Notes: a model not told the origin generated them from the letters alone. A stretch of DNA of 64,000 nt from an uncultured Bacteroidota bacterium (GCA_963712045.1 CAVQGO010000018.1:118591-182590), one strand, 5' to 3'. Positions 22,188 to 64,000 are shown, counted from the stretch's first letter. A program made the numbers and translations.

Positions 22188-23112
22188 ACCGGTCTCCGAT
22201 ATCAGGTATCTGGAAAGAAACGAAATTGACACCATCAAATGGGACAATTGTATCGTCAATGCATTCAATGGACTTATTTATGCCAGGTCATTCTACCTGG
22301 ATGCAATGGCTGAAAACTGGTCCGCTCTGGTGGCAGGAGACTATCAGTATGTAATGCCACTCACCTGGAATAAAAAAGTAGGCTTAAAGTATTTATATCA
22401 GCCCTATTTTACAAAATCACTGGGGGTATTCGGGAACAGCAGCCATTCATTTGAAATTTCCTCTTTCTTAAATGCAATACCTGAAATGTTCAGATACTGG
22501 GACATAGATCTGAATGAAAATAATTTCGTTTCTACGGATATCAGGAAATTGCGTCAACGTGCCCGCCGGAATCATTTCTTGTCTTTGGTCAACGACTACG
22601 AACATATTAGTCAGCAGTATAAAAGACTGGCAAATCGCATGACGAAAAAAGCCATTGAAGGACAGGTGCAGATTGTCCGTGGCGAAACCCCGGAACTGAT
22701 CATACAGTTATATCAACGGGATTACGCCAATAGGCATAAAAGAATCTCCGGCGCTGTTTATGAAAAATTAACGAGCTGTTCTGCATATGCATTTGATAAC
22801 AATCTGGCAGAAACATATCTGGCAAAATCCCTGTCAGGAGAAACTCTGGCATATTATATGATCCTGAAGGATGAACATTATATATATTCACTGCTCGGTG
22901 GCAGCACGAAAGAGGGAAAGCAAAAAGGGGCATTTTACCTGCTGACTGATGCCATTATCCGGGATCATGCCGGGACAAATAAAATATTTCGTTTTGAAGG
23001 TTCGGATATTCCGGGTATTTCTTTTTTTGACAACTTATTCGGACCCGAAAGAATATCATACCAGCACCTGGTTATGAATAAACTTCCTTTTTTAATCAGG
23101 TTCTTTAAATGA
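22180..23112 (+). CDS. GNAT/FemAB-like acyltransferase-domain protein
   Basis: IRYLERNEIDTIKWDNCI..., LYQPYFTKSLG, FRFEGSDIPGISFF..FG. ATG at 22180 overlaps the upstream stop. Confidence 0.75.
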   Translation: MTEPVSDIRYLERNEIDTIKWDNCIVNAFNGLIYARSFYLDAMAENWSALVAGDYQYVMPLTWNKKVGLKYLYQPYFTKSLGVFGNSSHSFEISSFLNAIPEMFRYWDIDLNENNFVSTDIRKLRQRARRNHFLSLVNDYEHISQQYKRLANRMTKKAIEGQVQIVRGETPELIIQLYQRDYANRHKRISGAVYEKLTSCSAYAFDNNLAETYLAKSLSGETLAYYMILKDEHYIYSLLGGSTKEGKQKGAFYLLTDAIIRDHAGTNKIFRFEGSDIPGISFFDNLFGPERISYQHLVMNKLPFLIRFFK

Positions 23113-26277: not shown

Positions 26278-27751
26278 TTATGCTGCCTGGTTTTTCCGGT
26301 TGCCGGAATTCGCGATATAATATAATGGAATTCCCAACAGAGCAATGATGAGCCCCGGCCAGGTATATTCAGGTTTATAAATAATCAGCAGAATACAAAA
26401 ACTGGTTCCCATCAGAATATACAGTATGGGTAAAAAAGGATATCCGAATGCCTTATAGGGTCTGGGTAAATCCGGCCTCTTTTTCCTCAGAATAAAAATA
26501 CCCAGAATGGTGAGTACATAAAAAATCACAACCACAAATGAAATCATATCGAGCAGATCGCCATATTTTCCACTCAGGCATAAAACAGAGGCCACTACAA
26601 ACTGCGCCCAGAGCGCCCATTGCGGAACTGAATTTTTATTCAGCTTCCCGGCCTGTCTGAAAAATAGTTTATCCTTTGCCATGGTATAATAAACCCGTGC
26701 ACCCGAAAGGATCAATCCGTTATTACAACCAAATGTCGACACCATGATCAGTAACGCGATGATATATGTCCCGGATTTTCCGAATATTACCTGGGAGGCT
26801 GCCACGGCAATCCGTGTCTTTTTCTGCATGCGCAATACCATCCATCGGAAGCACAGCGACATACATCAGGTTGGCACAAACATAAATTACGGTTACAATC
26901 AGAGTGCCGAGGAAAAGTGAAAGACCAATATTTTTCTGTGGATTTTTTATTTCACCTGCTATAAAAGTTACATTATTCCAGGCATCGCTACTGAAAACAG
27001 ATCCTACCATCGCCGCAGCAATTCCCCCTAATAGCGCAGCACCTCCAATTGAATTGACGTTAAAACCTAAAGATGGATTACAGGCATCTTTCAAAGTGGT
27101 TTTGGTTGCCGTCCAGGCGGTGGACCAGTTGGCATGCCACACTTCCGGATGAAATGCAATGAATCCGGCGATGATAAGTCCAAATAAGGCCAGCAATTTA
27201 GTGGAGGTAAAAATATTCTGAATCCATTTACTTCCTTTAACTCCGCGGGTATTTGTAAAAGTCAAAAAACCGATCAGCAGGATTGAAACAATTTGAGCAT
27301 GGTTAATGCTAAAGTAGGTAGGATTTCCACAGGTATTTACTCCTGTTTGTAAACGAACAGCATATCTGTCATCATTGAAAGAAGGGAAAATATAGGCTGC
27401 ATATTTGGAAAAAGCAACCCCGACCGCAGCGATGGTTCCTGTTTGGATTACTGCAAACAAACTCCAGCCATATAAAAAACTAACCAGTGGATTATATGCT
27501 TCTTTGAGATAAACATACTGACCACCCGCTTTTGGAAACATACCGCTCAGCTCGCCATAACTTACCGCAGCCGTCAACGTCATGAATCCGGTTATCAGCC
27601 ATACTAATATGAGCCATCCGGCTCCTCCAACATTTCTAACTATATCTGCGCTGACAATGAAAATTCCTGAACCGATCATGGATCCCGCAACGATCATGGT
27701 TGCATCCATCAATCCGAGCGTTGGCTTAAAATGAGGACTTTCTGCGGGCAT
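26278..27751 (-). CDS. APC family amino acid permease (one apparent +1 frameshift near 26820)
   Basis: MIVAGSMIGSGIF, PKAGGQYVYL, DAWNNVTFIAGEIKNP, ARVYYTMAKD. Removing one A gives AEKDRIAVAASQ. Confidence 0.9.
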
Positions 27752-28496: not shown

Positions 28497-31400
28497 CTAT
28501 TCTTCTTCATCGAACTGCAGGGCTTCCCTTGTGTTTTGGAGTAATTCATATTCCTCCTTGCTTCCCACGATCATGTTTTCAAATTCCCTCAATCCAGTAC
28601 CTGCAGGAATCGGATGTCCGGTGATAACATTCTCTTTCAATCCCATCATATTATCTGTTTTACCCTGAATAGCGGCTGAAGACAATACTTTCGTGGTTTC
28701 CTGGAATGATGCAGCTGAAATCCAGCTCTGTGTTCCCAAGGAAGCCTTGGTAATCCCCAGTAACATGGGTGCTGATGTAGCCGAATGTGCATCTCTGAAT
28801 TCTGCCAGTTTTTTATCATTGCGTCGCAAAATAGAATTTTCTTCCCTTACTTCACGCAAACTAACTATCTGACCGGGTTTCAGTTTGGCTGAATCTCCTG
28901 CATCCGTGATTACTTTCTTATCGAAGATCCAGTCGTTTTCATCGAGAAATTCAATCTTATCAACTGTTTCATCTTCAAGAAAACGGGTATCTCCGGGATC
29001 AACAATATTCAGTTTACGCATCATCTGCCGTACAATCACTTCAATGTGTTTATCATTGATCTTCACACCCTGCAAACGATATACTTCCTGGATTTCATTC
29101 ACAACATATTCCTGTACAGCAAACGGTCCCTTGATGGAAAGAATATCTGCCGGTGCTGTTTGTCCATCGGACAATTGCGCACCTGCTTTAATAAAGTCAC
29201 CATCCTGAGCCAGAATCTGGCGGGTAAGCGGAACAAGATATTTCTTTACAATACCATCTCTGGCTTCCACGATGATTTCACGGTTACCTCTTTTGATATT
29301 ACCGAAAGTCAACAACACCATCAATTTCAGAAACGACGGCCGGATTGCCTGGATTTCTTGCTTCAAACAATTCCGTTACACGTGGAAGACCACCCGTAAT
29401 ATCACGGAGTTTTCCGAGCACACGAGGAATTTTCACAATTACCTGTCCGCCGCGAACTTCTTCGCCTTCTTCCATAATGATATGGCTTCCAACCGGCAGG
29501 TTATAGTTTTTAATTTCTTTGCCACCTTCTACAACGATACCAGGAATTTTCGTTTTGTCTTTTGTATCGATAACTACTTTTTCACGATGACCCGTTTGTT
29601 CGTCGGCTTCTTCGCGGAAAGTAATTCCTTCAATAACGTTTTCAAATTTCAGTTTGCCCGTGATTTCACTAATCACCACGTTGTTGAACGGATCCCATGT
29701 ACAGATCACTTCACCCTTGGTAACCTTCTGTCCGTCTTTTACAGTCAGTGTGGCACCATAAGGAACGTTATTGGTAATCAGCAGGCGATCGTTCTTCACA
29801 TCCATGATTCTTACTTCACCGGTACGTCCGATAACGACTGGCACTTTCGCACCATCATTATTTTCGGCCATCACCGTTCTGAGTCCATCAAACTGTATGG
29901 TACCGTCGAATTTTGCCATCAGAGAAGATTCTACTGAAGCAGAACCGGCAACACCACCCACGTGGAAGGTACGCAGGGTAAGCTGTGTTCCCGGCTCACC
30001 TATCGACTGTGCAGCAATAATACCAACCGCATCACCTTTCTGCGCTGTATATCCGGTAGCAAGGTTCTTACCATAACATTTTACACACACACCACTTTTG
30101 CTTTCGCAAGTAAGTACCGAACGGATTTCTACCGTTTCAATACCTGTTTCTTCAATTCTCTTGGCAACTTCCTCTGTGATTTCGACACCACCTTCCGCAA
30201 TCAGCTGATCCGTAATCGGATCATAAATATCATGCAGGGAAACACGACCCAAAATACGATCGTACAATGGTTCAACGATATCTTCATTATCCTTCAGAGC
30301 GGTGGTTGCAATACCTCTTAATGTTCCGCAATCTTCTTCCTTGATAACCACATCCTGGGCAACATCCACGAGACGACGCGTCAGGTAACCTGCATCCGCC
30401 GTTTTCAGTGCCGTATCCGCAAGACCTTTTCGTGCACCATGCGTAGAGATAAAGTAATCCAATACATTCAGGCCGCCTTTAAAATTAGAAAGGATCGGGT
30501 TCTCAATGATTTCACTTCCTGTAGATCCGGATTTCCTTGGTTTGGCCATCAACCCTCTGATACCTGCCAGCTGTTTGATCTGCTGTTTGGATCCGCGGGC
30601 ACCGGAGTCAAGCATCATGTAAACAGAATTAAAACCCTGCTTATCAGAAGCCAGTTCACGAATCAATGTTTCTGTGATGCGTGTATCTACTCTTGACCAG
30701 ATATCTACAATCTGGTTATATCTTTCGTTATTTGTAATCAGACCCGTATTGTAATTGTCCCACACTTCATCTACTTCCACTTTTGCATTCACCAATAATT
30801 CTTCTTTGGTGTCAGGGATGATCAGGTCATTAATACTAAATGACAATCCACCGCGAAATGCCATGCGGAAACCCAGTGTTTTGATATCATCAAGGAACTT
30901 GGCTGTTTTCGGAACATTGGTCCATTTGATAATATTACCGATGATTTCGCGGAGCGATTTCTTTGTAAGCAACTGGTTTACGAACCCTACTTCGGCCGGC
31001 GTATGCTGATTGAATAGTACGCGACCGACGGTTGTTTCCAACAGCTTTTTTTCCAGTCCGTCATTTTCATTTCTGACATTTACTTTTACCTTGATATAAG
31101 CATGCAAATCAAGCTGACCTTCGTTATATGCGATAATAACCTCTTCCGGACTGTAAAAGGATTTTCCTTCACCCTTTACTTTTTCTGTTGGCGTGGATTT
31201 TTTTCCTTTTGTAATATAATACAATCCCAGTACCATGTCCTGTGAGGGCAGTGTGATGGGTGTACCATTTTGCGGGTTCAGGATGTTATGGCTTGAAAGC
31301 ATCAGTAACTGTGCTTCCAATACGGCTGCACTGCTCAATGGAACATGTACCGCCATCTGGTCACCATCAAAATCCGCGTTGAAGGATGTACATACCAATG

Positions 31401-32794
31401 GATGTAACTGGATCGCCTTCCCTTCAATGAGTTTTGGCTGAAATGCCTGGATGGAAAGACGGTGAAGAGTCGGAGCACGATTCAGCATCACAGGATGTCC
31501 TTTCAGAATATTTTCCAGGATATCCCACACGATGGCCTCTTTGCGATCAACCAGTTTTCTGGCAGACTTCACTGTTTTTACGATACCTCTTTCAATGAGT
31601 TTACGAATGATAAACGGCTTGAAAAGTTCAGCTGCCATATCTTTAGGCAATCCGCATTCGTGCAATTTCAATTCAGGACCCACCACAATAACGGAACGGC
31701 CTGAATAGTCCACACGTTTACCCAGTAAGTTCTGACGGAAACGTCCTTGTTTACCTTTCAGCACATCACTTAAAGATTTCAGCGCTCTTCCGCCTTCCGC
31801 TTTCACGGCATTGGATTTACGGCTGTTGTCAAAGAGTGAATCGATGGCTTCCTGCAGCATTCTCTTTTCATTGCGCAGGATCACTTCGGGCGCTTTGATT
31901 TCCAATAAACGCTTTAAGACGGTTATTACGGATAATCACACGACGGTAAAGATCATTCAAATCTGAAGACGCAAACCGGCCACCATCCAATGGAACCAGT
32001 GGACGCAATTCAGGAGGAATAACAGGAATATATTGCATAACCATCCATTCCGGACGGTTTGTAATTCTTGTATTGGCATCGCGGAAACTCTCTACTACGC
32101 TCAGGCGCTTCAAAGCGTCTGCTTTACGCTGTTGAGAAGTTTCGTTGGCTGCAGCTGCCCGCAGATCAAAGCTCAGCTGATCCAGATCGATTCTCTGCAG
32201 CAGATCATGCACAGCTTCTGCACCCATCTTGGCGATGAACTTTTGCGGATCGTCGTCAGGTAGATATTGATTGTCTTTCGGAAGAGTTTCAAGAATTTCA
32301 AGATATTCCTCTTCTGTCAGAAGATCACCCTGATTCTGATTTTTATCAGCACGGATTCCTGACTGGATCACGACATATCTTTCGTAATACACAATACTCT
32401 CCAGCTTCTTTGAACTCATGCCCAGCAAATAACCGGTTTTGTTCGGCAGACTTTTGAAATACCAGATATGAACCACAGGGACTACGAGTTTGATATGGCC
32501 CATGCGTTCACGACGAACTTTCTTTTCGGTTACTTCAACGCCGCAACGGTCGCACACGATCCCTTTATAACGGATCCTTTTATATTTTCCGCAGGCACAT
32601 TCATAGTCCTTCACAGGTCCGAATATGCGTTCGCAGAATAAACCATCCCTTTCGGGTTTGTAGGTTCTGTAGTTTATAGTTTCAGGCTTTAAAACCTCTC
32701 CATAGGATCTTTCCAGAATGGAATCGGGAGAAGCAAGTCCGATGGTGATTTTTGAGAAAGTGGCTTTGGGACGATTTTCTTTTTTAATAGCCAT
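28497..32794 (-). CDS. rpoC: DNA-directed RNA polymerase subunit beta' (two apparent +1 frameshifts near 31912 and 29310)
   Basis: Zn finger [60 protein letters not shown] spread over three frames. Removing one base at each junction gives [12 protein letters not shown] and [12 protein letters not shown], about 1431 aa in total. Confidence 0.98.
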
Positions 32795-50279: not shown

Positions 50280-53200
50280 ATGGAACAAAACCAGGGGTTA
50301 TATCGCCCTTCTTTTGAGCGGGATTCTTGTGGTATCGGCTTTGTAGCCAATATTAAAGGCAATAAGAGTCACCAGATCATCTCAGATGCACTCACGATCC
50401 TTGAACACATGGAACACCGGGGTGCCTGCGGCTGTGAAATTAATACCGGTGATGGTGCCGGGATTATGATCCAGACCCCGCACGAATTCTTTTTTGACGA
50501 GTGCATCCGGCTTGGTTTCCACCTGCCTGCCTATGGCAAATACGGTGTGGGAATGATATTCTTTCCAAGAGATATTATGCTCAAGGAAGAATGCCGGGAT
50601 ATTTTTAACCGCGCAGCTGAAAAACTGGGCCTTGAAGTGCTGGGTTACCGTAAAGTTCCGGTAAACCCCGACGGAATAGGACCTACTGCCCTTTCTGTTG
50701 AACCGGATATCGAACAGGTATTCATTGCCAGTCCCGACCATTTCAACGACCCTGAAGAATTTGAACGTAAGTTATTTATACTCCGGAATTATTCCAGTCA
50801 TCTCATAGAGAGCTCGGTTAAGAAAGATCCGATCGGATTTTATCTCGCTTCGCTCTCATACAAAACCGTCGTATACAAGGGCCAGCTCACGAGTAAACAG
50901 GTGCGTCATTATTTTCCCGACCTGACAAATAACCGCATCGTTTCTGCATTCGGGCTCATTCATTCCCGTTTTGCTACCAATACTTTTCCTTCCTGGAAAC
51001 TTGCACAACCCTTCCGTTACATAGCCCACAATGGTGAAATCAATACGGTTCAGGGAAACCTGAACTGGCTAAAGACCAGTGAAAAGGGATTTGAATCTCC
51101 TTACTTCACAAAAGAAGAAATGGAGATGATGCTTCCTTTGATTACAGAAGGACAGTCAGATTCTGCCTGTCTGGACAATATGATCGAACTTACTCCTGTT
51201 CTGCGGCCGCTCTCTGCCTCATGTGATGATGATGCTGATCCCTGAAGCCTGGGACGGCAATGAACAGATGGATCCTGTAAAAAAAGCATTTTACGAATAC
51301 CATGCTTCTTTAATGGAGCCCTGGGATGGACCCGCTTCGATTTCTTTTACAGACGGAAAAATGATCGGTGCTACACTCGACCGAAACGGACTGCGGCCAT
51401 CACGCTACTGTGTTACCACCGACGACCGTGTCATCATGGCTTCAGAAACCGGCGTTCTTCCCATCGACCAGAAAATCATCCGCGAAAAAGGAAGGCTTCA
51501 ACCTGGAAAAATGTTCGTGGTGGACATGGAACAGGGACGAATCATCAGCGACGATGAGATCAAGAATAAAATTTGTTCTTCCCGACCATATGCTGAATGG
51601 CTAAATAAATACAAAATCCGGCTCGAAGAATTACCGGAACCCCGGGTTACGTTTACTGAATTACAGCATGACCAGATTTTTAAATATCAGAAGGTTTTTG
51701 GTTATACCACAGAGGATGTTGAATCCATTATCACGCCGATGGCATTGGATGGCAAGGAACCCATCGGTTCCATGGGATCTGATATACCTCTTGCCGTACT
51801 CAGTGATGAGCCACAACATCTAAGCAGTTATTTCAAACAGCTATTCGCGCAGGTCACCAACCCGCCGATAGATCCGATCCGCGAACGTCTTGTCATGTCG
51901 CTGGCAACATTTGCGGGTAACAATGGAAATCTGCTGGTTGAAGATCCGCTCGCCTGTCATTGTGTGGCCCTGAAACACCCGGTACTAACAAACCACGAAC
52001 TCGAAAAAATCCGAAGTATAGATACGGGAATCTTTCAGGCAAAAACTTTACAGCTTTATTTCAGGGCAGATGAAAAACCCGGTTCCTTGCAGGCAGGTTT
52101 GGAAAGGCTTTGCCGTTATGCTGTGGATGCTGCGAAAGACGGATTTGAGGTGTTAATATTATCTGACCGGGCTATAGATTCGGATCATGCACCGATTCCA
52201 TCCCTGCTTGCAGTGGCCGCTGTTCATCATCACTTAATCAGGAAGGGATTACGCGGACAGGTAGGCATTATCGTTGAAGCGGGAGATGTTTGGGAAGTAC
52301 ACCACTATGCCTGTCTCATCGGATTCGGCGCGACTGCTATTAATCCTTATCTGGCGCTCGCAACGATACATGACGCACAGAAAACGGGCAAACTGCAAAC
52401 CAGTCTTGAACCTGAATACCTGAGGAAAAATTATGTCAAGGCTGTCAATGACGGATTGCTAAAAGTATTCTCCAAAATGGGAATCTCCACATTGCAGTCT
52501 TACCAGGGTGCACAGATATTTGAAATCATTGGATTAAACAATTCCGTGGTGGATAAATATTTTACGGGAGCAACCTCCCGTATCCAGGGAATGGGGCTGG
52601 ATGAAATTGCCCGCGAAACACTCGCTAAACATTTATTCGCATTTAGCCGGAAAGATATTCCGGTGGAACGTCTACCAACTGGTGGGGTATATCAATGGAA
52701 ACGGAAAGGAGAATTTCATCTCTTCAATCCGAACACCATTCACTATCTGCAATATTCAACTCATATGAACGATTATCTGTCGTTCAAAAAATATTCAAAG
52801 CTGGTGAATGATCAGATGGAGAAAACAGCCACCATCAGAAGTTTGTTCCAGTTTAAAAGAAACCGTCCAACCATATCAATTGAAGAAGTGGAACCGGAAG
52901 AAAGCATCATGAGAAGGTTTGCAACCGGTGCCATGAGTTTCGGATCTATTTCACATGAAGCCCATTCTACCCTGGCAATCGCCATGAATCGTATTGGCGG
53001 GAAAAGTAATACCGGCGAAGGAGGCGAAGATGAGTTCCGTTTTGAACCGTTGGCCAATGGCGACTCTATGCGATCAGCCATTAAACAAGTAGCTTCTGCG
53101 AGATTTGGTGTTACAAGCTATTACCTTACACAGGCTGATGAATTACAAATCAAAATGGCGCAGGGCGCGAAACCCGGAGAAGGTGGACAATTGCCCGGAC

Positions 53201-54798
53201 ATAAAGTAGATGAGTGGATCGGGAAAGTGAGGCATTCAACACCAGGTGTCGGACTTATTTCTCCACCCCCGCATCATGATATTTATTCAATTGAGGATCT
53301 TGCGCAGTTGATATTCGATCTGAAAAATTCAAACCGCAATGCGAGAATTAATGTAAAACTGGTTTCCAAAGCAGGTGTTGGAACGATTGCAGCAGGCGTT
53401 GCCAAAGCAAAATCGGATGTCATCCTGATTTCCGGGCACGATGGAGGCACCGGTGCATCTCCGATCAGTTCTATCCGTCATACCGGTTTACCCTGGGAAT
53501 TGGGATTGGCGGAATCTCATCAGACACTGGTGAAAAATAAATTACGCAGCCGTGTAGTTTTGCAAACCGATGGACAATTAAAAACCGGTCGTGATGTGGC
53601 CATTGCAACTTTACTGGGAGCTGAAGAATGGGGTGTAGCAACTGCTGCGCTCGTAGTCGAAGGTTGCATCATGATGCGCAAGTGTCATCTGAATACCTGT
53701 CCGGTGGGTGTTGCCACACAGGATCCCGTTTTGAGAAAACGTTTTACAGGCAATGCGGATCATGTTGTAAACCTGTTTAAATTTCTGACCCGGGAATTAC
53801 GGGAGATCATGGCTGAACTGGGCTTCCGAACCGTTGATGAAATGGTAGGCCAGGTGGAATGTCTCGAGGTTAATGATAACCTGAAACACTGGAAATCAAA
53901 AAAACTAAATCTGTCTCCGATATTATTTAAAGAACCGACTTCTATGTACACCGGTATTCATCATTCTGAAGATCAGGATCATGGTCTCGAAGATGTTCTG
54001 GATTGGCAACTGCTGGCAGCAGCCAGGCCGGCACTCGAATCGGGACAGAAAATATCTGCGGCATTTAATGTTAAGAATACCGACCGTACCATCGGCACCA
54101 TTCTGTCGAATGAAATTTCTAAACTATATAAATCGAAGGGTCTTCCCGCTGATACCATTCATTTCAAACTCAAAGGAACAGCGGGCCAGAGCTTTGGTGC
54201 ATTCAACACATCTGGCGTTACACTCGAGTTGGAAGGAGACGCGAATGATTATTTCGGAAAGGGATTGTCCGGCGCCAGGCTGGTCGTTTATCCTGCACCC
54301 GATGCAGGATTTGTTCCGGAAGAAAATTTTATCATAGGTAATGTAGCATTTTATGGAGCAACCTCAGGGGAGGCTTTTATCAGGGGTAAGGCCGGGGAAC
54401 GGTTTGCCGTTCGTAATTCCGGCGCCAATGCTGTAGTGGAAGGAATCGGAGATCACGGTTGCGAATACATGACAGGAGGCAGGGTTTTGATTCTGGGTTC
54501 TACCGGACGGAATTTTGCGGCTGGCATGAGCGGCGGAATTGCATATGTATATAATGTGGATGGAAATTTTCCATCGCTCTGCAATCCGGAAATGATTGAC
54601 CTGGATCCATTGAACGAAGAAGACATCCGGGAAATGAAAGATATGATTTCCCGCCACTATGCTTATACCGGAAGTACGGTTGCAAAATTTGTATTGGAGG
54701 ATTTTGAAAACCAGCTTCGGAATTTCGTAAAAGTGTTTCCAAAGGATTATAAAAAAGTATTGCAAGAAAAGAAGGCCCGTGTAGGCGTCAATTCCTGA
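50280..54798 (+). CDS. gltB: Glutamate synthase large subunit (one apparent +1 frameshift near 51192)
   Basis: ERDSCGIGF (N-terminal Cys amidotransferase), HSRFATNTFPSW, EPWDGPA, KMAQGAKPGEGGQLPG, CHLNTCPVGVATQ. Removing one A gives MIELLLFCGRSLPHVMMMLIPEAW. Confidence 0.97.
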
Positions 54799-56501: not shown

Positions 56502-57734
56502 ATGGACTATCAACAAATGCTCAATAAAGTTGAGCAATACGCCAGAGATTCCTTTGATCATACGAATTTGAATAATCTCCTTTACCACAATCTCCGGCAC
56601 ACGGAATCTGTAGCATCTTATGCCAAGCAGATTGCCCATCATTACCAACTCGGCGAGCGTGATTATTTTATTGTGGTCGCGTCGGCATGGCTACATGATC
56701 TCGGGTATACTTTAGAAAGAGCGAATCATGAAGCAGAAGGTGCAGGGGCTGCCGGTATATTTCTGGGAAATATCGGTCTGTCAGGCACGGATATCGATTC
56801 TATAAAGGGCTGTATACTGGCAACCAAACTGCCTCAGAATCCGCATAATCTGCTTGAAGAAATAGTTTGCGATGCCGACCTCTACCACCTGGGCACTTCA
56901 CACTTCAGCGAACTCAATAAGTCAATGCGAAAAGAAGCAGAAGATGCGGGCAATACTAAAATATCGAAGGATGACTGGAGAGTAAAAACCATCAATTTCC
57001 TTGAATCGCATACATATCATACAGAATATGCAAAGTTGCTGCTGAACGACCAGAAGCAAAAAAATCTGGAAGAATTAAAGGAAAAATCCGAATCTAAATT
57101 TCAGCAGGATCTGCGTCCCAAATCATCGCTGGCCGTTGGCGAACATACGGATGACACAACGCATCATCATGAAAAACATAAAAAAGACAAGGATAAAAAT
57201 GAGCGACCCGAACGAGGAATAGAAACCATGTTCAGGGTGAGTTCCTCCAATCATCAGCGTTTGAGTGACATGGCAGATAATAAAGCGCATATCATGATCA
57301 CAGTGAATTCGATCATACTGTCAGCCGTGATCAGTTTACTATTGCGAAAACTGGATGAAAATAGCTATTTAATGATTCCGACATTTATGTTACTTGCAGC
57401 CAGTCTGATTACGATTATATTTTCTATTCTCGCAACCCGCCCCACCATTCCGAATGGAATATTTTCCAAAAAGGATATCGAAGAAAAAAAAGTAAATCTT
57501 CTATTCTTTGGTAATTTTTACCGGATGAAGCTTCCCGACTATAAAGAAGGCATGGAAAAGATGATGGCTGACAAGGACTATCTATACGGAAGCCTGATCA
57601 TGGATGGATTTGCGCAGGGAAAAGTATTGGGAAAAAAATATCAGCTGTTGCGAATCTCTTATAATGTATTTATGTTCGGATTAATCTTGTCGGTCATTGC
57701 ATTTATTATTGCATCGGCATTCTATGGAAAATAA
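56502..57734 (+). CDS. HD-domain phosphohydrolase fused to a Pycsar-type transmembrane effector domain (DUF5706/PycTM-like)
   Basis: YHNLRH (28-33), WLHD (H65 D66), HE (76-77), CDAD (D124, D126). The C-terminus has ADNKAHIMITVNSII, two TM helices, NLLFFGNF and KKYQLLR plus a third TM helix, as I recall for PycTM-family domains. Confidence 0.8.
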   Translation: MDYQQMLNKVEQYARDSFDHTNLNNLLYHNLRHTESVASYAKQIAHHYQLGERDYFIVVASAWLHDLGYTLERANHEAEGAGAAGIFLGNIGLSGTDIDSIKGCILATKLPQNPHNLLEEIVCDADLYHLGTSHFSELNKSMRKEAEDAGNTKISKDDWRVKTINFLESHTYHTEYAKLLLNDQKQKNLEELKEKSESKFQQDLRPKSSLAVGEHTDDTTHHHEKHKKDKDKNERPERGIETMFRVSSSNHQRLSDMADNKAHIMITVNSIILSAVISLLLRKLDENSYLMIPTFMLLAASLITIIFSILATRPTIPNGIFSKKDIEEKKVNLLFFGNFYRMKLPDYKEGMEKMMADKDYLYGSLIMDGFAQGKVLGKKYQLLRISYNVFMFGLILSVIAFIIASAFYGK

Positions 57735-58590
57735 CTACCCGAGCTTAATAATTTTTTTTCTCTGTACCCTGGTCGCGACCAGTTCCTGTGAAAGTCAGCA
57801 GCAACCATATACTTCACCGCCCGGCTATAATTTCAACAATCCTAAACGCTTTAAAATGCCAAATGCTCTGAGGGAAATATCGGGGATTGCATTTTATCAG
57901 GGAACCGGCGATACATTGTATGCTGAACAGGATGAAGAAGGCAAGGTATTTCGTTTTAGATTAGGCGATGCAAATATGCAGGTTACCCGGTTCGGGAAAA
58001 AAGGAGATTTCGAAGACATATCCGTCGCCAACAACATTATAATCATGTTAAGAAGTGATGGCGTATTATTTACTTTTCCAATTTCCGAAATGCAGAAAAA
58101 AGCAACGGACAATGTGAAAATATTCGAAGACCTTTTGCCGGATGGTGAATACGAAGGCCTTGCTTCAGATGGTCTGAGCAACAAATTATATGTGCTTTGC
58201 AAACATTGTCGCAACGAAAAAACAAACAAGTGGGGAGGCGGTACCATATTACAAATAGATGCTGCCGGTGTACTAACGCCAGCAGGAAATTTTGAATTGG
58301 ATATTAAGGAAATCGACGCGATTTCTCATTCACGAAAAATAAATTTTCATCCCTCCGCCCTGGCCCAAAACCCGTTAACCAAAGAATGGTACATTCTTTC
58401 CTCCGTTAATAAAATGCTGGTCGTGGCCGACCCAAACTGGAAGGTAAAATCTGTGTATCCCCTGAATCCGTCATTATTCGTGCAACCCGAAGGAATCGCC
58501 TTTGACAGGCAGCAAAATCTTTATATTTCAAATGAACGGGGATTGTCATCGGCCGCTACTATTCTCTTATTTGCCTATAATAAAAATTAA
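57724..58590 (+). CDS. SdiA-regulated/YjiK-like beta-propeller lipoprotein
   Basis: Lipoprotein signal ...LVATSS-C; repeated blades EISGIAF, QDEEG, FEDIS, YEGLA, PSALA, QPEGIAFD..LYISNE. The start overlaps the upstream stop. Confidence 0.7.
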   Translation: MENNYPSLIIFFLCTLVATSSCESQQQPYTSPPGYNFNNPKRFKMPNALREISGIAFYQGTGDTLYAEQDEEGKVFRFRLGDANMQVTRFGKKGDFEDISVANNIIIMLRSDGVLFTFPISEMQKKATDNVKIFEDLLPDGEYEGLASDGLSNKLYVLCKHCRNEKTNKWGGGTILQIDAAGVLTPAGNFELDIKEIDAISHSRKINFHPSALAQNPLTKEWYILSSVNKMLVVADPNWKVKSVYPLNPSLFVQPEGIAFDRQQNLYISNERGLSSAATILLFAYNKN

Positions 58591-58679: not shown

Positions 58680-61600
58680 ATGAAATCATTCTTATACCTC
58701 TGCACAGGAATGCTGGTTATTCACGCTGCGAATGCGCAGGATTCTGTTTTGCAGAGAGTCATCATGATTGGTGATGCCGGTGAAATCGATAAGGAACAGC
58801 AGGCAGTCATCCCCGCTGCCTCTAATATGGTCATCCCCGGAAAAACTACCGTCATTTATCTGGGTGATAATATTTACCCACGGGGTATGGGTTTGCCAGG
58901 CAGCAAAGAGGAAGAAGACAACTAAAAAGATTCTGCAATCCCAGTTTAATCCGATGCGTAGTAAAGGTGCACCGGTGTATTTCATACCGGGCAACCACGA
59001 CTGGGATAAAGGGGGTAAAAACGGACTGGCTAAAATAAAACAGGAGTGGTACTACCTGGAAGAATTAAACGATTCGCTGTTGAAACTGCTGCCGCCGGAC
59101 GGATGCCCCGGCCCAACGGAAATAAATATTTCTGACGAACTGGTCATTATTGTATTTGACAGCGAGTGGTGGTTATTCCCATTTGATAAAACGAATTTGC
59201 TGGCAGAATGTAATTGCCGCACAAAGAAAGATGTAATACTGCGGATGCAGGAATTATTATATAAGAACCGAAACAAAACCATTTTCCTGGCTTCGCATCA
59301 TCCGTTCCAGAGTTACGGAACACACGGGGGATACTTTTCCTGGAAGGATCATATTTTCCCCCTGACGGCAGCCAACGAAAACCTGTACGTTCCCTTACCA
59401 ATAGTCGGTTCACTGTATCCGATCCTCAGAAAAACTTTTACAAATCCAGAGGACCTTCATCATCCACTGTACAAATCAATGATCAGACAGGTGGATGCCG
59501 TTTTTGACAGTTTTCCCAACCTGATCCATATCGCAGGTCACGAGCACGGACTTCAATTTATAAAGGGTAAACAAATTCAGGTTGTCAGTGGCTCCGGATC
59601 GCAGGAGACCTATGCGAGAAAAACAAAAAATTCTCTTTTTGCAGAATGCAAATCAGGGTTTCGTGACAGCAGATCTTCTGATAAACCGGACCGTTCGTTT
59701 TACATTTTATGAGTACAGGGAAAGTGGCATCGCACCCGTATTCACCTACCGCCAGCCTTACACAGAAATGACTTTTAAAGAAGATTCTGTATATGCTGCC
59801 AGTTTGGAGGACAGTGTCATCAGGAGTGTTCATCCGAGATATGATTATCCCGGAAAATTTCATCGGAAATTATTCGGGGAAAACTATCGCAAGGAATGGG
59901 CCAGGCCGACCAAATTACCCCTGATAAAAATATCCAATTTCCATGGTGGTTTAATACCCCTGCAACGGGGCGGTGGTATGCAATCGAATTCTTTGCGGCT
60001 GGTAGACAGTTCCGGAAATGAATGGGTGATCCGAAGTGTTGAGAAAACGGTTGATTTGTTATTGCCCGAAGCGCTGAGAAGTACTTTCGCCAGGGATTTT
60101 CTGGATGACGTAACCAGCGGTCAGCACCCGTTTTCCGCATTATCGGTGCCTCCGATTGCCGATGCAGTAAAAGTTCCGCATGCCAACCCGGAAATCGGTG
60201 TTATCGCACCTGATAAAAATCTGGGACTATATGAAAGGTATTTTGTAAATACCATTTGCCTTATTGAAGAACGGGAACCTGGTGGAAAATCGGATAACAC
60301 TGGTAAAATGCTGAGTAATCTGGATAAGGATAACGATAATTCAATAAAAGGAAAAGAATTTCAAAGGGCAAGGATGCTGGACATGTTTCTCGGCGACTGG
60401 GATCGACATGAGGACCAATGGAGATGGCATAATACGGACACCGGAAAAGACAAACGATATGAGGCCATTCCCCGTGACCGCGACCAGGTATTCCATATTA
60501 CACAGGGATTACTTCCCAAACTGGCCGCTAGTCCTTATATACTTCCTACTCTTCAGAATTTTAGTGGAAAAGTGGAACATCCGGAGTACTCCGTATTCAA
60601 ATCCCGCTTCCTGAATGCCTATCCCGATATGCAATTCGATTATGAGGACTGGATGAAAATGACTTACCGGTTTAAGGATGATATGACAGACAGTGTACTG
60701 GAAGCTGCATTGCGACGATTGCCAGCCGAGTCATATAAACTGCGACACAAAGAATTATTAACTGAATTGCAGCACCGGCGTGAAGATATGCCCCGTGCGA
60801 TGGAGTACTACTATAAGTTCATCAATAAAATTGCAGACATCAAACTGAGTGATAAGAATGAATGGGTCAATATTCAGGGCACTGCAGATGGTTCGATGCG
60901 CGTGTCCGTCCGAAAAATCAATAAAGATGGAGAAGCGAAAGGTGAACTGATGGACAAGACATTCCAAGCCGGACTGACAAAGGAAATCAGGATTTATACA
61001 GGCGATGGGGACGACAGTGTATCCATTGAAAACAAAACCTCTTCGATAGGCATCCGAATCATCGGACGGGACGGAAGGAAGGTTTACCGGGTTGAAGACT
61101 CGAAAAAAAGAATAAAACTCTATGATAAAGCGGATCCCGTTTTTTATGATGACAGCAACCGATTCATAAAATATATTTCTACCGATACCGCAAATACAAC
61201 ATTTGTACCCGTGAATTTGTATAATGTTACGATGCCTTTGTTAAATATTGCCATAAATCGGGATGACGGTTTGCTGATTGGCGCGGGATATGTACATACG
61301 GCACAGGAGGGTTTTCGTAAATCCCCCTTTGCCAGCCAATATCAGATCATGGTAAATCATTCGTTTTCAACCAGTGCATTCAGTGCAAGCTATAAGGGAG
61401 AATGGACTTCTGTGTGGGGAAAGGCCGATCTGACTCTGCAGGCTTTTGCTTATGCTCCTCAGAATACCCAGAATTTTTTTGGCAGCGGAAATGAAACGGT
61501 TATTAATAAAGCCGGCGACTACAAAACATACTATCGCACACGTTTCAACCTTTATCAGGCGCTCCCTGCACTTCGCTGGAATTTCAATGGGGGACGAAAC

Positions 61601-62287
61601 AGTTTCAGCATGGGCCCTGCGATTCAATATTATCATTTTACGCCGGGCGACAATGAAGGAAGATTTATTCTGCAGCCAGGAGCTGTGAACACCTATGACA
61701 GTAACAGCCTGGGAAGCGACCGCGTCCATGCGGGTATTATATTTAATTATAATCAGGATCTTCGCAATAGTAAACTGATCCCAACCTGGGGCTCTTCGAT
61801 ATCAGTTCAAATGGCCGCATGGCAGGGATTAAATACAGCTTCAAAATCTTATGGACAACTAAAAGCGAGTGTTGCGCTTTTCAAAAGTCTGAACGACCGT
61901 TCCACATTGATATTGGCAGACCGCGTGGGAGGTACTGTGACTGTAGGAAATCCTGCTTTTTATCAGACGGCATATTTAGGCGGACAAGGAAATTTGCTGG
62001 GTTATTCCCAATATCGTTTTTCAGGTCTGAACAGCGTCTTCAATAATCTTGAATTGAGATTAAAGCTCGCAGATTTTGCAAACTATATTTTGCCGGGTCA
62101 ACTGGGGATATTTGCATTTTACGATATCGGACGGGTTTGGGAAAAAAATGACTATTCCCAGCAGTGGCATAACGGAACCGGCATCGGATTGTATTTTTCA
62201 CCCGCACAAATGGCAGTCATACAAATCGTAGCTGCACATTCTGTAGAGGGTTGGTATCCTTATTTTTCTTTAGGGTTCAGATTTTAA
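58680..62287 (+). CDS. Metallophosphoesterase + kinase-like domain + Omp85 (BamA/TamA-like) barrel fusion, about 1200 aa (two apparent +1 frameshifts near 58920 and 59648)
   Basis: Signal peptide; GDAG, GDN, GNHD, SHH, GHEH calcineurin-like motifs; middle GGGMQS...GDWDRHEDQW...PRDRDQ; C-terminal beta strands with YRFSG and NNLELR, ending YPYFSLGFRF. Single-A removals join the three ORFs. Confidence 0.82.
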
Positions 62288-62293
62288 GAGATT

Positions 62294-64000
62294 ATGAAAG
62301 CAGATTTAATACATATCAGCAAAAAGATTGACTTTGAAAACAGTTTCAAGTCTGTGATCTCATTTAAAAAATTTATTGACTTTTTAAAGTCAAGTATTCA
62401 GTCTGGGCCATCCATCAAAATTCCTTACTTTAAATGGATCATAAAGAAGTTCAAAAAATTTCCAGAACTCTCAAACAATGTTCCGCTTGAAAAACTGAGC
62501 GAATATGAAGAGATGCTGGAACTGGTTTCTACCTGCCTCCTGCCCCTGGCGGCCGACGAGAATAGTTTATGGGCGCTCAGCAGTCCGCTATCCCCGCAAA
62601 TATTTTACAGCACCGACGGATTTCATAAGTTAATGGGGCATCTTGAACACCCGGTTGTACTGGATCCCGCAAAAGGAAATGCGGATAGTGAATCTGAAAA
62701 AATCATGAGAGAATTACAGTACGGCATGTTGCTTGAAAAAGTATATTCCTTACCGTATTTAAAGAAGACCGAATGGATCCGGAAGTTTGAAGATCCGGAT
62801 ACGGGGCTGGATAAATATTTCCAGGTACATATCGACACACGTTTTATCGATATCCGGCCCATTAATCAATTACCGGCAATGGATTGCTCTTCCATGTCGC
62901 CTGCCTCTGTATGGGGGGAAGAATTCAAAAAAATACAAAAGTCGATTCAACTGAACCAATTCGAAGCGAGGGGATTCAGTATTATTACACTGATCGATGT
63001 AACGGCGGAGCAAGCCGTTGAACAGCTTGGAAAGCTCGTGATCCATCATTCTGAAAAGGATAAACGTCCGTTATTTGAGGATATTACACATGCTCTGCAA
63101 ACCGTGGTCGGCAGCAGAGATTACCAATTCGGACTTGTTCCCTTCCTTTCAATTAATGATCGTCCCGCATTGATTTTTGACAAAATTCCATATAGTATCA
63201 TTCTGCAGGCCTGCAGGAACTTCGATGTTTCAAAAAAAGAATTTTCTAAACTCAGGAATGATTTTACACTCAATCCAAGAATGATTATTTGGACAGCGAC
63301 TGACAAGGAAAGCCAATTGCCCGAATTTGTGGGAAATGCTTTCCGGCAGACAGGAATCGGTACATATATAATGTTTCCGATTTTTCACAATGAACAGGTT
63401 ACCGGATTTTTCGAAGTCAGCACTATGGCGGATAATTCCATGTTGAGTGAGGGTCAGATGGTGCGACTGAAACCTGTTCTTTCTATCATGACGCAGCTGA
63501 TACAGGATATCATTGCACGTTTTAACCATAGCATAGAAAATATCATAAAAGAAAAATTTACCAGTATACAACCCGCGGTTCAATGGAAATTCAATGAGGC
63601 AGCCTGGCACTATCTCAGGGATCATAGTAATGAAGAAGAAGTAGAAACGGTAGAAAATATAATTTTTAAAAATCTACACCCGCTATATGGAGCTGTGGAT
63701 ATCAGAAATTCTACCATTCTCCGCAATCAGGCTCTGGAAAAGGATTACACTATTCAGCTCGGGACTTTAATCAATGCACTGTCTTCCCTCAATTACTACG
63801 AAAAACCACAACTGGATCGTCTCCTGACAACGGCCAATAATTGGCAGCAGATCATTCAGGAAACTTTAACGACACAACAGGATGTCAGGCTGAATGAATT
63901 TTTTAATCTGGACGTTCAATATGAACTTGAAAATCTTCTGCATGCTGAACCTGAAACGACCGAATTCCTGATACCTTACTTCCAATCAATTGATGAGGAA
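62294..64000 (+). CDS. GAF-domain protein with a cyclase-like motif (3' end outside window)
   Basis: ATG at 62294, open to the right edge (569 codons). GAF-type hairpin GIGTYIMFPIFHNEQVTGFFEV (63353-63418), then EKFTSIQPAVQWKF and LYGAVDIRNST. Confidence 0.75.
   Translation, partial: MKADLIHISKKIDFENSFKSVISFKKFIDFLKSSIQSGPSIKIPYFKWIIKKFKKFPELSNNVPLEKLSEYEEMLELVSTCLLPLAADENSLWALSSPLSPQIFYSTDGFHKLMGHLEHPVVLDPAKGNADSESEKIMRELQYGMLLEKVYSLPYLKKTEWIRKFEDPDTGLDKYFQVHIDTRFIDIRPINQLPAMDCSSMSPASVWGEEFKKIQKSIQLNQFEARGFSIITLIDVTAEQAVEQLGKLVIHHSEKDKRPLFEDITHALQTVVGSRDYQFGLVPFLSINDRPALIFDKIPYSIILQACRNFDVSKKEFSKLRNDFTLNPRMIIWTATDKESQLPEFVGNAFRQTGIGTYIMFPIFHNEQVTGFFEVSTMADNSMLSEGQMVRLKPVLSIMTQLIQDIIARFNHSIENIIKEKFTSIQPAVQWKFNEAAWHYLRDHSNEEEVETVENIIFKNLHPLYGAVDIRNSTILRNQALEKDYTIQLGTLINALSSLNYYEKPQLDRLLTTANNWQQIIQETLTTQQDVRLNEFFNLDVQYELENLLHAEPETTEFLIPYFQSIDEE

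Follow-up and report, generated by a model that had tools for sequence, protein, structure and literature searches.

The DNA examined here (hereafter the window) is a stretch of 64,000 nucleotides from an uncultured Bacteroidota bacterium (GCA_963712045.1, CAVQGO010000018.1:118591-182590), and all positions are counted from its first letter. Toward its end, on the plus strand, the open reading frame (ORF) listing and the translation delimit a single gene (58680–62287) encoding a 1,201-amino-acid protein, from an ATG at 58680 to a stop codon at 62285–62287. As assembled, this gene passes through three successive reading frames, A from 58680 to about 58916 (the stop of this frame lies at 58923), B up to about 59644 and C up to 62287. 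It is one gene, intact in nature, and its host is a Puia-like soil bacterium of the Chitinophagaceae. The protein is a member of the 'metallo' subfamily of Omp85 proteins, and its domains follow one another in the order Sec signal peptide, metallophosphatase of the purple acid phosphatase (PAP) type, domain of the protein-kinase-like (PKL) fold, all-beta spacer and Omp85 barrel devoid of POTRA domains. The predicted kinase fold of the middle domain and the outer-membrane tether that carries it form the core of the interpretation proposed below.

A first-pass annotation of this DNA had claimed a kinase-like domain in the middle of the protein, a claim that was borne out at the level of a predicted structure. 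The AlphaFold2 model of residues 375–835, built with a 115-sequence alignment, reached a mean pLDDT of 93.9 and a pTM of 0.92; its residues 1–342 form an alpha/beta and helical portion and its residues 343–458 are all-beta. The PKL domain corresponds to residues ~390–716 (59849–60829, plus strand) and has no Pfam or NCBIfam model, both libraries giving zero matches across the ~460 residues between the phosphatase and the barrel, as expected from the earlier statement that standard annotation misses this domain. When the model was compared with the PDB using Foldseek, all 16 matches at E ≤ 0.001 were kinases, and the top 50 consisted almost wholly of kinases or kinase-fold proteins. The matches included H. 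pylori CtkA (E 7e-6, probability 1.0, TM-score 0.50 on the target), PI4KIIalpha (E 3e-5), CotH (E 3e-4) and YihE (E 7.6e-4), followed by weaker ones to Rio1/2, HipT, mTOR/PI3K, an alpha-kinase and eukaryotic protein kinases. Since the two best matches, CtkA and PI4KIIalpha, are themselves neighbours, the nearest structural neighbours named for PI4KIIalpha being CtkA, Fam20C and actin-fragmin kinase (PMC3974213), the model places the domain within the atypical-kinase neighbourhood.

The motifs on which the kinase-like catalytic layout had been proposed were each located in the translation, and they sit at kinase-topology positions along the secondary structure of the model. The Gly-rich loop GGGMQS (residues 430–435, 59969–59986) lies between model strands E51–55 and E63–67 and is followed by the strand VIRSVEK (residues 449–455), the whole segment spanning 59969–60046 on the plus strand; Lys455 (60044–60046) comes just after model strand E73–78, an acidic residue, Asp476, falls within the helix that follows, and the sequence EEREP occupies the hinge position after the fifth strand. 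The catalytic-loop-like GDWDRHEDQW (residues 571–580, exactly 60392–60421, plus strand) carries the D-W-D-R-H-x-D-Q-W pattern directly after the long helix H183–196. Within it, Asp574 (60401–60403) corresponds to the catalytic Asp and Gln579 to the Asn, with the D-x4-N/Q spacing of kinase catalytic loops. The next strand pair (strand E218–223) is followed by R-D-R-D-Q, part of PRDRDQ (residues 597–602, 60470–60487, plus strand), in which Asp599 and Asp601 stand at the metal-binding position of DFG or IDxxQ. Judging from these topological positions, we infer that the conserved residues cluster in three dimensions.

Conservation was counted in 150 representatives of clusters at ≤50% identity, and the catalytic-type residues were conserved in 94–100% of them. 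Lys455 is present in 150/150, Gly431 in 147/149 and Gly432 in 143/149, Asp476 in 144/150, Asp572 in 149/150, Asp574 in 141/150, Arg575 in 149/150 and His576 in 147/150. Gln579 is found in 143/150, the other seven having Asn, and Asp599 and Asp601 each in 148/149. The loop is also strongly conserved in DNA, since its 33 bases at 60389–60421 are matched at 90% or better by contigs of unrelated organisms in the soil runs X21 and X22.

The signal peptide and the phosphoesterase motifs reported by the first-pass annotation are present as well. The start codon and the Sec signal peptide (residues 1–19, MKSFLYLCTGMLVIHAANA, 58680–58736, plus strand), which is cleaved before QDS, were recognized from the translation and from the aligned N-termini of homologues. 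The phosphatase domain extends from residue 20 to about residue 365 (58737–59776, plus strand), through frames A, B and C, and its N-terminal part matches Pfam PF00149 (Metallophos) above cut-off with an E-value of 1e-6. Its motifs are GDAG (residues 31–34), GDN (62–64), GNHD (103–106), HH (205–206) and GHEH (285–288). A search of the domain as a single sequence against PAP gave an E-value of 0.005, and a 24-sequence profile run against the PDB retrieved mammalian PAPs, with human PAP/TRAP (1war) at E 1.4e-16 and all motif blocks aligned. The seven PAP ligand positions, D32, D63, Y66, N104, H205/H206, H286 and H288, are invariant in the homologue alignment, where the family motif reads GDNIY with an invariant Tyr. 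The Tyr of GDxxY is the metal ligand that distinguishes PAPs, enzymes of broad substrate range that hydrolyse both esters and anhydrides. Because of the profile match and of this Tyr, the domain, previously described as calcineurin-like, is assigned on sequence grounds to the PAP type. An LpxH- or SbcD-type phosphoesterase was also considered and set aside, as the NCBIfam matches were insignificant and the profile search gives the PAP type.

Downstream of the PKL domain, residues 717–835 (60830–61186, plus strand) form an all-beta spacer of 11 short strands in the model (model residues 343–458), in the place where POTRA domains would stand. The Pfam scan returned no POTRA family, and the AlphaFold2 model has no beta-alpha-alpha-beta-beta unit in the ~120 residues before the barrel. 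The spacer contains two G-x-G-x-D-x-[FVY] turns, GDGDDSVSI and GRDGRKVYRV. These turns recall beta-roll calcium-binding repeats, and relatives have GGAGEDEY and GGKGDDVF. The Omp85-type beta-barrel itself (residues 836–1201, 61187–62287 including the stop codon, plus strand) matches PF01103 with 33.8 bits against a cut-off of 24 (E 3.5e-8), and NCBIfam Omp85_fam with an E-value of 5e-20 and 72 bits, below the curated cut-off of 200. It ends in ...YFSLGFRF, which agrees with the beta signal GFRF noted earlier, and the final residue is F or Y in nearly all homologues. A further conserved segment, GGQ.NLLGY..YRF.G, has invariant G, N, L, G, R and F; its Arg appears to lie outside the canonical place of the loop-6 (V/I)RG(F/Y) motif. 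The Bacteroidetes metallophosphoesterase subfamily of Omp85 proteins that the first-pass annotation mentioned does exist. It is the 'Metallo' group of Heinz & Lithgow (2014, PMC4104836), defined in that paper as an Omp85 barrel with an N-terminal PF00149 domain (there termed 'metalloprotease') in Bacteroidetes and with its function left open; the same paper describes a POTRA-less 'noNterm' Omp85 group. Because the link between the spacer and the first barrel strand is short, and because the enzyme domain of PlpD was shown experimentally to be exclusively periplasmic (Hanson et al. 2024, PMC11116518), the barrel probably holds the enzyme part of the protein on the periplasmic side of the outer membrane.

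The two frameshifts that the first-pass annotation had pointed out are also real features of the assembled sequence, which compared with intact homologues and with a related contig has exactly one extra base near 58917 and one near 59645. The first lies in GAAGAAGACAACT (58917–58920, plus strand), where relatives read SKEEE(T/D/E)TKKIL in frame, and the second in GCAGAATGC (59644–59645, plus strand), where they read SLFA(N/D/E)ANQGF; alignment to homologues places the extra bases in the contexts GAAGAA[G]ACAACT and GCAG[A]ATGC. The related contig, a 74-kb ENA entry (L086), matches the window colinearly, with 95.3% identity over 11.7 kb, and codes for an intact 1,201-amino-acid protein. Contigs from four soil or rhizosphere metagenome runs (X1–X4), 95–99% alike, have one base fewer at each site in 4/4 cases, and a fifth metagenome run (X25) likewise lacks both. 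It had been suggested that the frameshifts be repaired from reads: the related runs do lack the extra bases, and a repair of the gene as it exists in nature proved unnecessary, close relatives being intact. The best-matching read run contains only 50% of the window's 31-mers, and the read evidence on the frameshifts is that of related data sets. The supposition that the phosphoesterase and barrel parts might be separate genes was rejected, as relatives holding the gene whole have one ORF.

The same window contains other split genes. The gene rpoC (beta') is divided into three ORFs (28500–32794, minus strand), an amino-acid permease gene into two (26281–27751, minus strand) and gltB, for the large subunit of glutamate synthase, into two (50280–54798, plus strand), the latter being intact with 1,505 amino acids in L086. 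These splits point to an indel error about every 10 kb in the window's assembly. Since L086 and the five runs lack the extra bases, and since rpoC, gltB and the permease gene are frame-split too, the frameshifts in the gene under study are, from these sequence comparisons, most probably assembly errors. The alternative, a real pseudogene in this strain created by two independent one-base insertions, is very improbable. Both extra bases are indeed present in the window sequence, neither falls within a long homopolymer, and they are the sole coding indels relative to L086 across the 11.7 kb compared. However, essential rpoC carries two splits in the same 64 kb and gltB and the permease gene one each; the gene has no further decay, with zero in-frame stops and 91% identity to its closest homologue over the full length, and it is intact in 6/6 related data sets. 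Programmed frameshifting was ruled out, close relatives being read in frame without the extra bases. Elsewhere in the window, a peptidase-M1-like ORF of 898 amino acids (19491–23112, plus strand) overlaps the next ORF (335 amino acids, no Pfam match) by 83 nt, which may be a further frameshift.

With the read-through protein as query, more than 3,000 homologues were found, annotated as 'BamA/TamA family outer membrane protein' or 'metallophosphoesterase'. Among the matches listed, those covering the whole query are single ORFs of ~1,200 amino acids from Chitinophagaceae and Sphingobacteriaceae, and the closest (P0001) is 91% identical and has 1,201 amino acids. Of 85 loci fetched, all those holding the gene whole have it unbroken. 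Given the more than 3,000 homologues, the single ORFs and the invariant or nearly invariant motif residues, the features described above are far beyond chance. An exhaustive HMMER search with the middle region gave 2,515 representative clusters at E ≤ 0.001 and 1,061 at E ≤ 1e-30 (50% identity representatives), mainly from Bacteroidota. The sole 'RNA' run holding the sequence is labelled GENOMIC and was discarded as evidence of transcription.

Three architectures occur in the family. Proteins of ~1,200–1,300 amino acids combine phosphatase, kinase fold and barrel; others of ~850–880 amino acids, with a signal peptide, have kinase fold and barrel and no phosphatase; and lipoproteins of ~530–545 amino acids consist of kinase fold and beta spacer only, with no barrel. 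Three of these barrel-less lipoproteins (P0176, P0215 and P0250) read DWSRHEDNW, with Ser for Asp574 and Asn for Gln579; the two residues change together, which may point to inactive forms or to another kind of chemistry. To sample the neighbourhoods, 80 loci from different GTDB species were screened by tblastn and phmmer, and the tripartite gene was found at 53/80 loci and the phosphatase-less relative (kinase fold and barrel) at 27/80. The constant unit is thus the kinase-fold domain with its beta spacer and outer-membrane tether, and the phosphatase is a frequent accessory. Both forms coexist at four loci, where the gene without the phosphatase is an additional copy adjacent to the tripartite one; in L001/L002, L012 and L061 a second copy of the phosphatase-less kind lies a few kb downstream. 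A Sphingobacteriales genome (L053:6247-16119) has three adjacent paralogues, two with the phosphatase domain and one without.

The gene stands within a conserved cluster. Look-ups of three homologues had shown a polyphosphate kinase directly upstream in two genomes, and partners were then counted within 8 kb of the tripartite gene at the 53 loci. A membrane protein combining HD and PycTM-type domains was present at 49/53, a lipoprotein beta-propeller of ~290 amino acids (SdiA-regulated or phytase-like) at 39/53, a GAF protein of ~790 amino acids at 32/53 and polyphosphate kinase PPK1 at 31/53, with all four at 22/53. The usual order is HD-PycTM, PPK1, propeller, target gene and GAF protein, and the genes abut or overlap. 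Members of Chitinophagales, Sphingobacteriales and Cytophagales share the cluster but differ in its gene order and strands, and because it is kept across three orders despite rearrangement, functional coupling is favoured over mere inherited synteny. At 16/27 phosphatase-less loci no partners were found.

In the window, the HD-PycTM protein is encoded at 56502–57734 (plus strand; Pfam PycTM E 1.7e-31, HD E 4e-4), with the HD domain at its N-terminus, the PycTM-type domain at its C-terminus and three hydrophobic segments, as expected for an inner-membrane protein. The propeller gene follows at 57697–58590 (plus strand; PF06977 E 3e-6), its likely true start being the ATG at 57724, and propeller orthologues carry lipobox-type N-termini. 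Downstream of the target gene, tblastn identified the GAF-domain protein, a cytoplasmic one (62294–64000, plus strand), of which the N-terminal 567 of ~797 amino acids are covered before the window ends; the full-length protein is available as P0272 (797 amino acids, 97% identical) and in L086:10001-12394 and has no signal peptide. PPK1, where present, matches the equivalog TIGR03705 with 653 bits and also lacks a signal peptide. The AlphaFold2 model of the GAF protein (pLDDT 84.7) comprises a GAF/PAS sensor, a long helical linker and an output domain that resembles, by fold alone, a class III cyclase or GGDEF domain, with Foldseek matches to a phytochrome-cyclase (6e-7), soluble guanylate cyclase, DosP and Cya2 (TM-score 0.47); Pfam gave a weak GAF match only and no cyclase or GGDEF model. 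The C-terminal domain of the HD-PycTM protein matches the PADLOC models for a Pycsar effector (PycTM) and a CBASS-type '2TM effector'; taken with the fold of the GAF protein, this hints that the two proteins could form a cyclic-nucleotide signalling pair. As PADLOC matches the PycTM domain alone and nothing else in the cluster, an anti-phage defence locus was not retained as the main explanation. A defence island is moreover unlikely because the cluster is syntenic across three orders and lies by the housekeeping genes gltBD in the window and in L086; the HD-PycTM/GAF pair may have a defence role.

We propose that the protein is a phosphotransferase anchored to the outer membrane on its periplasmic side, combined with a PAP-type hydrolase and working within an envelope cluster linked to phosphate or polyphosphate, the kinase fold and the tether being its core; we give this whole explanation a probability of about 0.6. 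The barrel would keep both enzymes tethered on the membrane's periplasmic side, and the conservation pattern suggests that the kinase-fold domain is catalytically active in phosphoryl transfer. The phosphoryl donor would be held by Lys455 together with the Gly-rich loop, Asp574 and Gln579 would form the catalytic loop and Asp599/Asp601 would bind metal. The substrate would be an envelope component, for example a protein or the head group of a lipid or glycan, and the PAP-type domain would hydrolyse phosphate esters or anhydrides there as well. Our protein would be the outer-membrane component of an envelope-spanning cluster with the HD-PycTM protein in the inner membrane, PPK1 in the cytoplasm, the propeller lipoprotein and the GAF sensor, in line with the compartment signals of the partners (PPK1 and GAF protein without signal peptide, hydrophobic segments in HD-PycTM and lipoboxes in the propellers). 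The gene linkage to this cluster is what ties the proposed chemistry to polyphosphate or phosphate metabolism.

Several observations weigh against this proposal. The Foldseek TM-scores are modest (0.3–0.5, with a root-mean-square deviation of 7–9 A), and Gln stands at the usual position of the catalytic-loop Asn. In sequence searches, phmmer found nothing in the PDB for the middle domain, a 14-sequence profile of this domain gave against the PDB only a chance 'DWDxH' match to HDAC6 (E 2.5), and Pfam at E ≤ 10 on 14 members gave no kinase family, including PF00454, HipA_C and CotH. When the family profile was aligned by hhalign to the catalytic region of PI4KIIalpha, whose catalytic loop is 308–315 (PMC3974213), the PDB sequence LDYIIRNTDRGNDNW was paired with LDMFLGDWDRHEDQW, at 33% identity over 21 columns with an E-value of 0.029 and a probability of 1.7%, which is not significant. 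Filing the domain under PI3/4K was dropped for this reason, and the suggested membership in the PI3/4K, HipA or CotH types has no sequence-level match in the PDB, Pfam or hhalign comparisons, the likeness being structural only. What the model and the conservation support is a kinase fold with a kinase-type active-site set, outside demonstrable PI3/4K, HipA or CotH membership. As to the cluster, PPK1 is absent from that of the window itself, from that of L086 and from 22/53 tripartite loci, and its linkage could in part be the inherited synteny of a single-copy housekeeping gene. Finally, the periplasm is generally held to lack ATP and we know of no phosphoryl donor there, which makes a classical kinase reaction problematic; it is also because ATP is not expected in the periplasm that the ppk1 linkage is of interest. 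In an extended version of the proposal, the kinase-fold domain would use polyphosphate made by PPK1, and not ATP, to phosphorylate an envelope lipid, glycan or protein, the cluster as a whole being a trans-envelope polyphosphate system. The polymer might enter the periplasm via the PycTM-type domain of the HD protein, controlled by the GAF sensor and its cyclase-like output, and the PAP-type domain and propeller lipoprotein would trim or recycle phosphate. We hold this specific version to be distinctly improbable.

Other functions were weighed against the anchored phosphotransferase. The kinase-fold domain could be a pseudokinase-like binder or scaffold, for a nucleotide, polyphosphate or a lipid head group, in a protein that would essentially be an acid phosphatase anchored in the outer membrane and serving to scavenge phosphate. 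Domains of the PAP type are typically found in secreted enzymes with that role, a phytase-like propeller adjoins (though its match is weak), and both the Gln in place of the catalytic-loop Asn and the Ser that some lipoprotein relatives have for Asp574 (DWSRHEDNW) speak for this reading. However, the Lys/Asp/Asp set is 94–100% conserved across the 150 divergent clusters, a pattern that pseudokinases usually lose, and the kinase-fold domain persists where the phosphatase is absent, so that we regard a mere scaffold as unlikely. The first-pass annotation had favoured a cycle in which the kinase-fold domain phosphorylates an extracytoplasmic substrate from ATP and the fused phosphatase removes the same phosphate. 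Both domains do keep complete catalytic motifs, and they are fused at 53/80 species loci; yet the phosphatase-less relative at the other 27 makes the pairing non-obligatory, the lipoprotein forms lack phosphatase and barrel alike, PAP-type enzymes are broad-spectrum hydrolases and no ATP source is known in the periplasm. That the phosphatase is optional weakens the cycling model, which we consider quite unlikely.

The location of the enzyme domains is open to a further reading, in which they are passengers delivered to the cell surface by way of the barrel or alongside it, much as in type Vd secretion, there acting on external organic phosphate, ATP or polyphosphate. Surface delivery was allowed by the original patatin-Omp85 model and by what Heinz & Lithgow suggested for 'metallo' proteins (PMC4104836). 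The literature also reports extracellular ATP and polyphosphate in soil habitats; on the other side, the passenger comprises ~815 folded residues and is connected to the first barrel strand by a short link. Under the lipoprotein export signal (LES) rule, export is signalled by acidic residues after the lipoprotein Cys, and the barrel-less lipoprotein relatives have no such signal. With the enzyme domain of PlpD exclusively periplasmic (PMC11116518), surface passengers appear improbable here.

Bacterial phosphorylation is regarded as cytoplasmic chemistry, and the periplasm has no known ATP supply. The findings describe a large family whose kinase fold keeps its catalytic set intact and is attached to the outer membrane through either an Omp85 barrel or a lipid anchor, often fused to a PAP-type phosphatase and linked to ppk1. 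Full-text literature searches, in a searchable library that is incomplete, returned no paper that describes Omp85 proteins with a kinase-like domain or a cluster joining ppk1 to an Omp85 gene. The Omp85 'Metallo' subfamily was known (PMC4104836); what is new is the kinase-fold family inside it and the conserved cluster around it. As this kinase-like family lies outside current domain libraries, thousands of annotations as 'BamA/TamA family protein' or 'metallophosphoesterase' are incomplete. If the domain is active, a phosphoryl donor or substrate so far unknown would exist in the envelope, the role of polyphosphate outside the cytoplasm would become testable with a defined gene set, and the protein would be the second case, after PlpD, of an Omp85 barrel re-used as an enzyme anchor. 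Should the trans-envelope polyphosphate version hold, no dedicated extracytoplasmic kinase system would have been described before it in a Gram-negative envelope, and the kinase fold would have been put to a new use. In any case, the gene set makes the question of an outer-membrane kinase fold experimentally approachable.

Among known kinases, the middle domain most resembles in structure CtkA (PDB 3akj/3akk), with which, as with HipA/HipT-type kinases, it has the D-x-H-x-x-N/Q loop pattern in common. CtkA is a soluble secreted Ser/Thr kinase, whereas the domain described here is tethered to the outer membrane and has no detectable sequence homology to it. PI4KIIalpha (PDB 4hnd/4hne), the second-best structural match, is likewise a membrane-attached kinase-fold enzyme; its loop DRGNDNW is similar to DRHEDQW, as is the L-D helix end that comes before the loop. 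In contrast to PI4KIIalpha, the present domain does not match PF00454 and is devoid of the PI4KII insertions and palmitoylation motif. CotH, a structural match at E 3e-4, and Fam20C offer examples of atypical kinase folds that act outside the cytosol, but they work where ATP is available (mother cell, Golgi lumen) and have no sequence relationship to the family.

For the phosphatase, the mammalian PAPs (TRAP/ACP5, PDB 1war and 1ute) share the seven metal-ligand positions, including the Tyr of GDxxY, although here the predicted enzyme is one module of an outer-membrane protein. The closest parallel for the tether is PlpD, a patatin-Omp85 of type Vd (PMC11116518), in which an N-terminal enzyme is also fused to an Omp85 barrel apparently re-used as an anchor; PlpD has one POTRA domain and a lipase, whereas our protein has no POTRA domain, two domains predicted for phosphoryl chemistry and a beta spacer. 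With the 'Metallo' subfamily it has in common, once the two insertions are read through, that a single polypeptide carries PF00149 ahead of an Omp85 barrel. The available portion of PMC4104836 makes no mention of a middle domain; here a PAP-type phosphatase, a predicted kinase fold and a beta spacer precede the barrel, in a gene cluster linked to ppk1.

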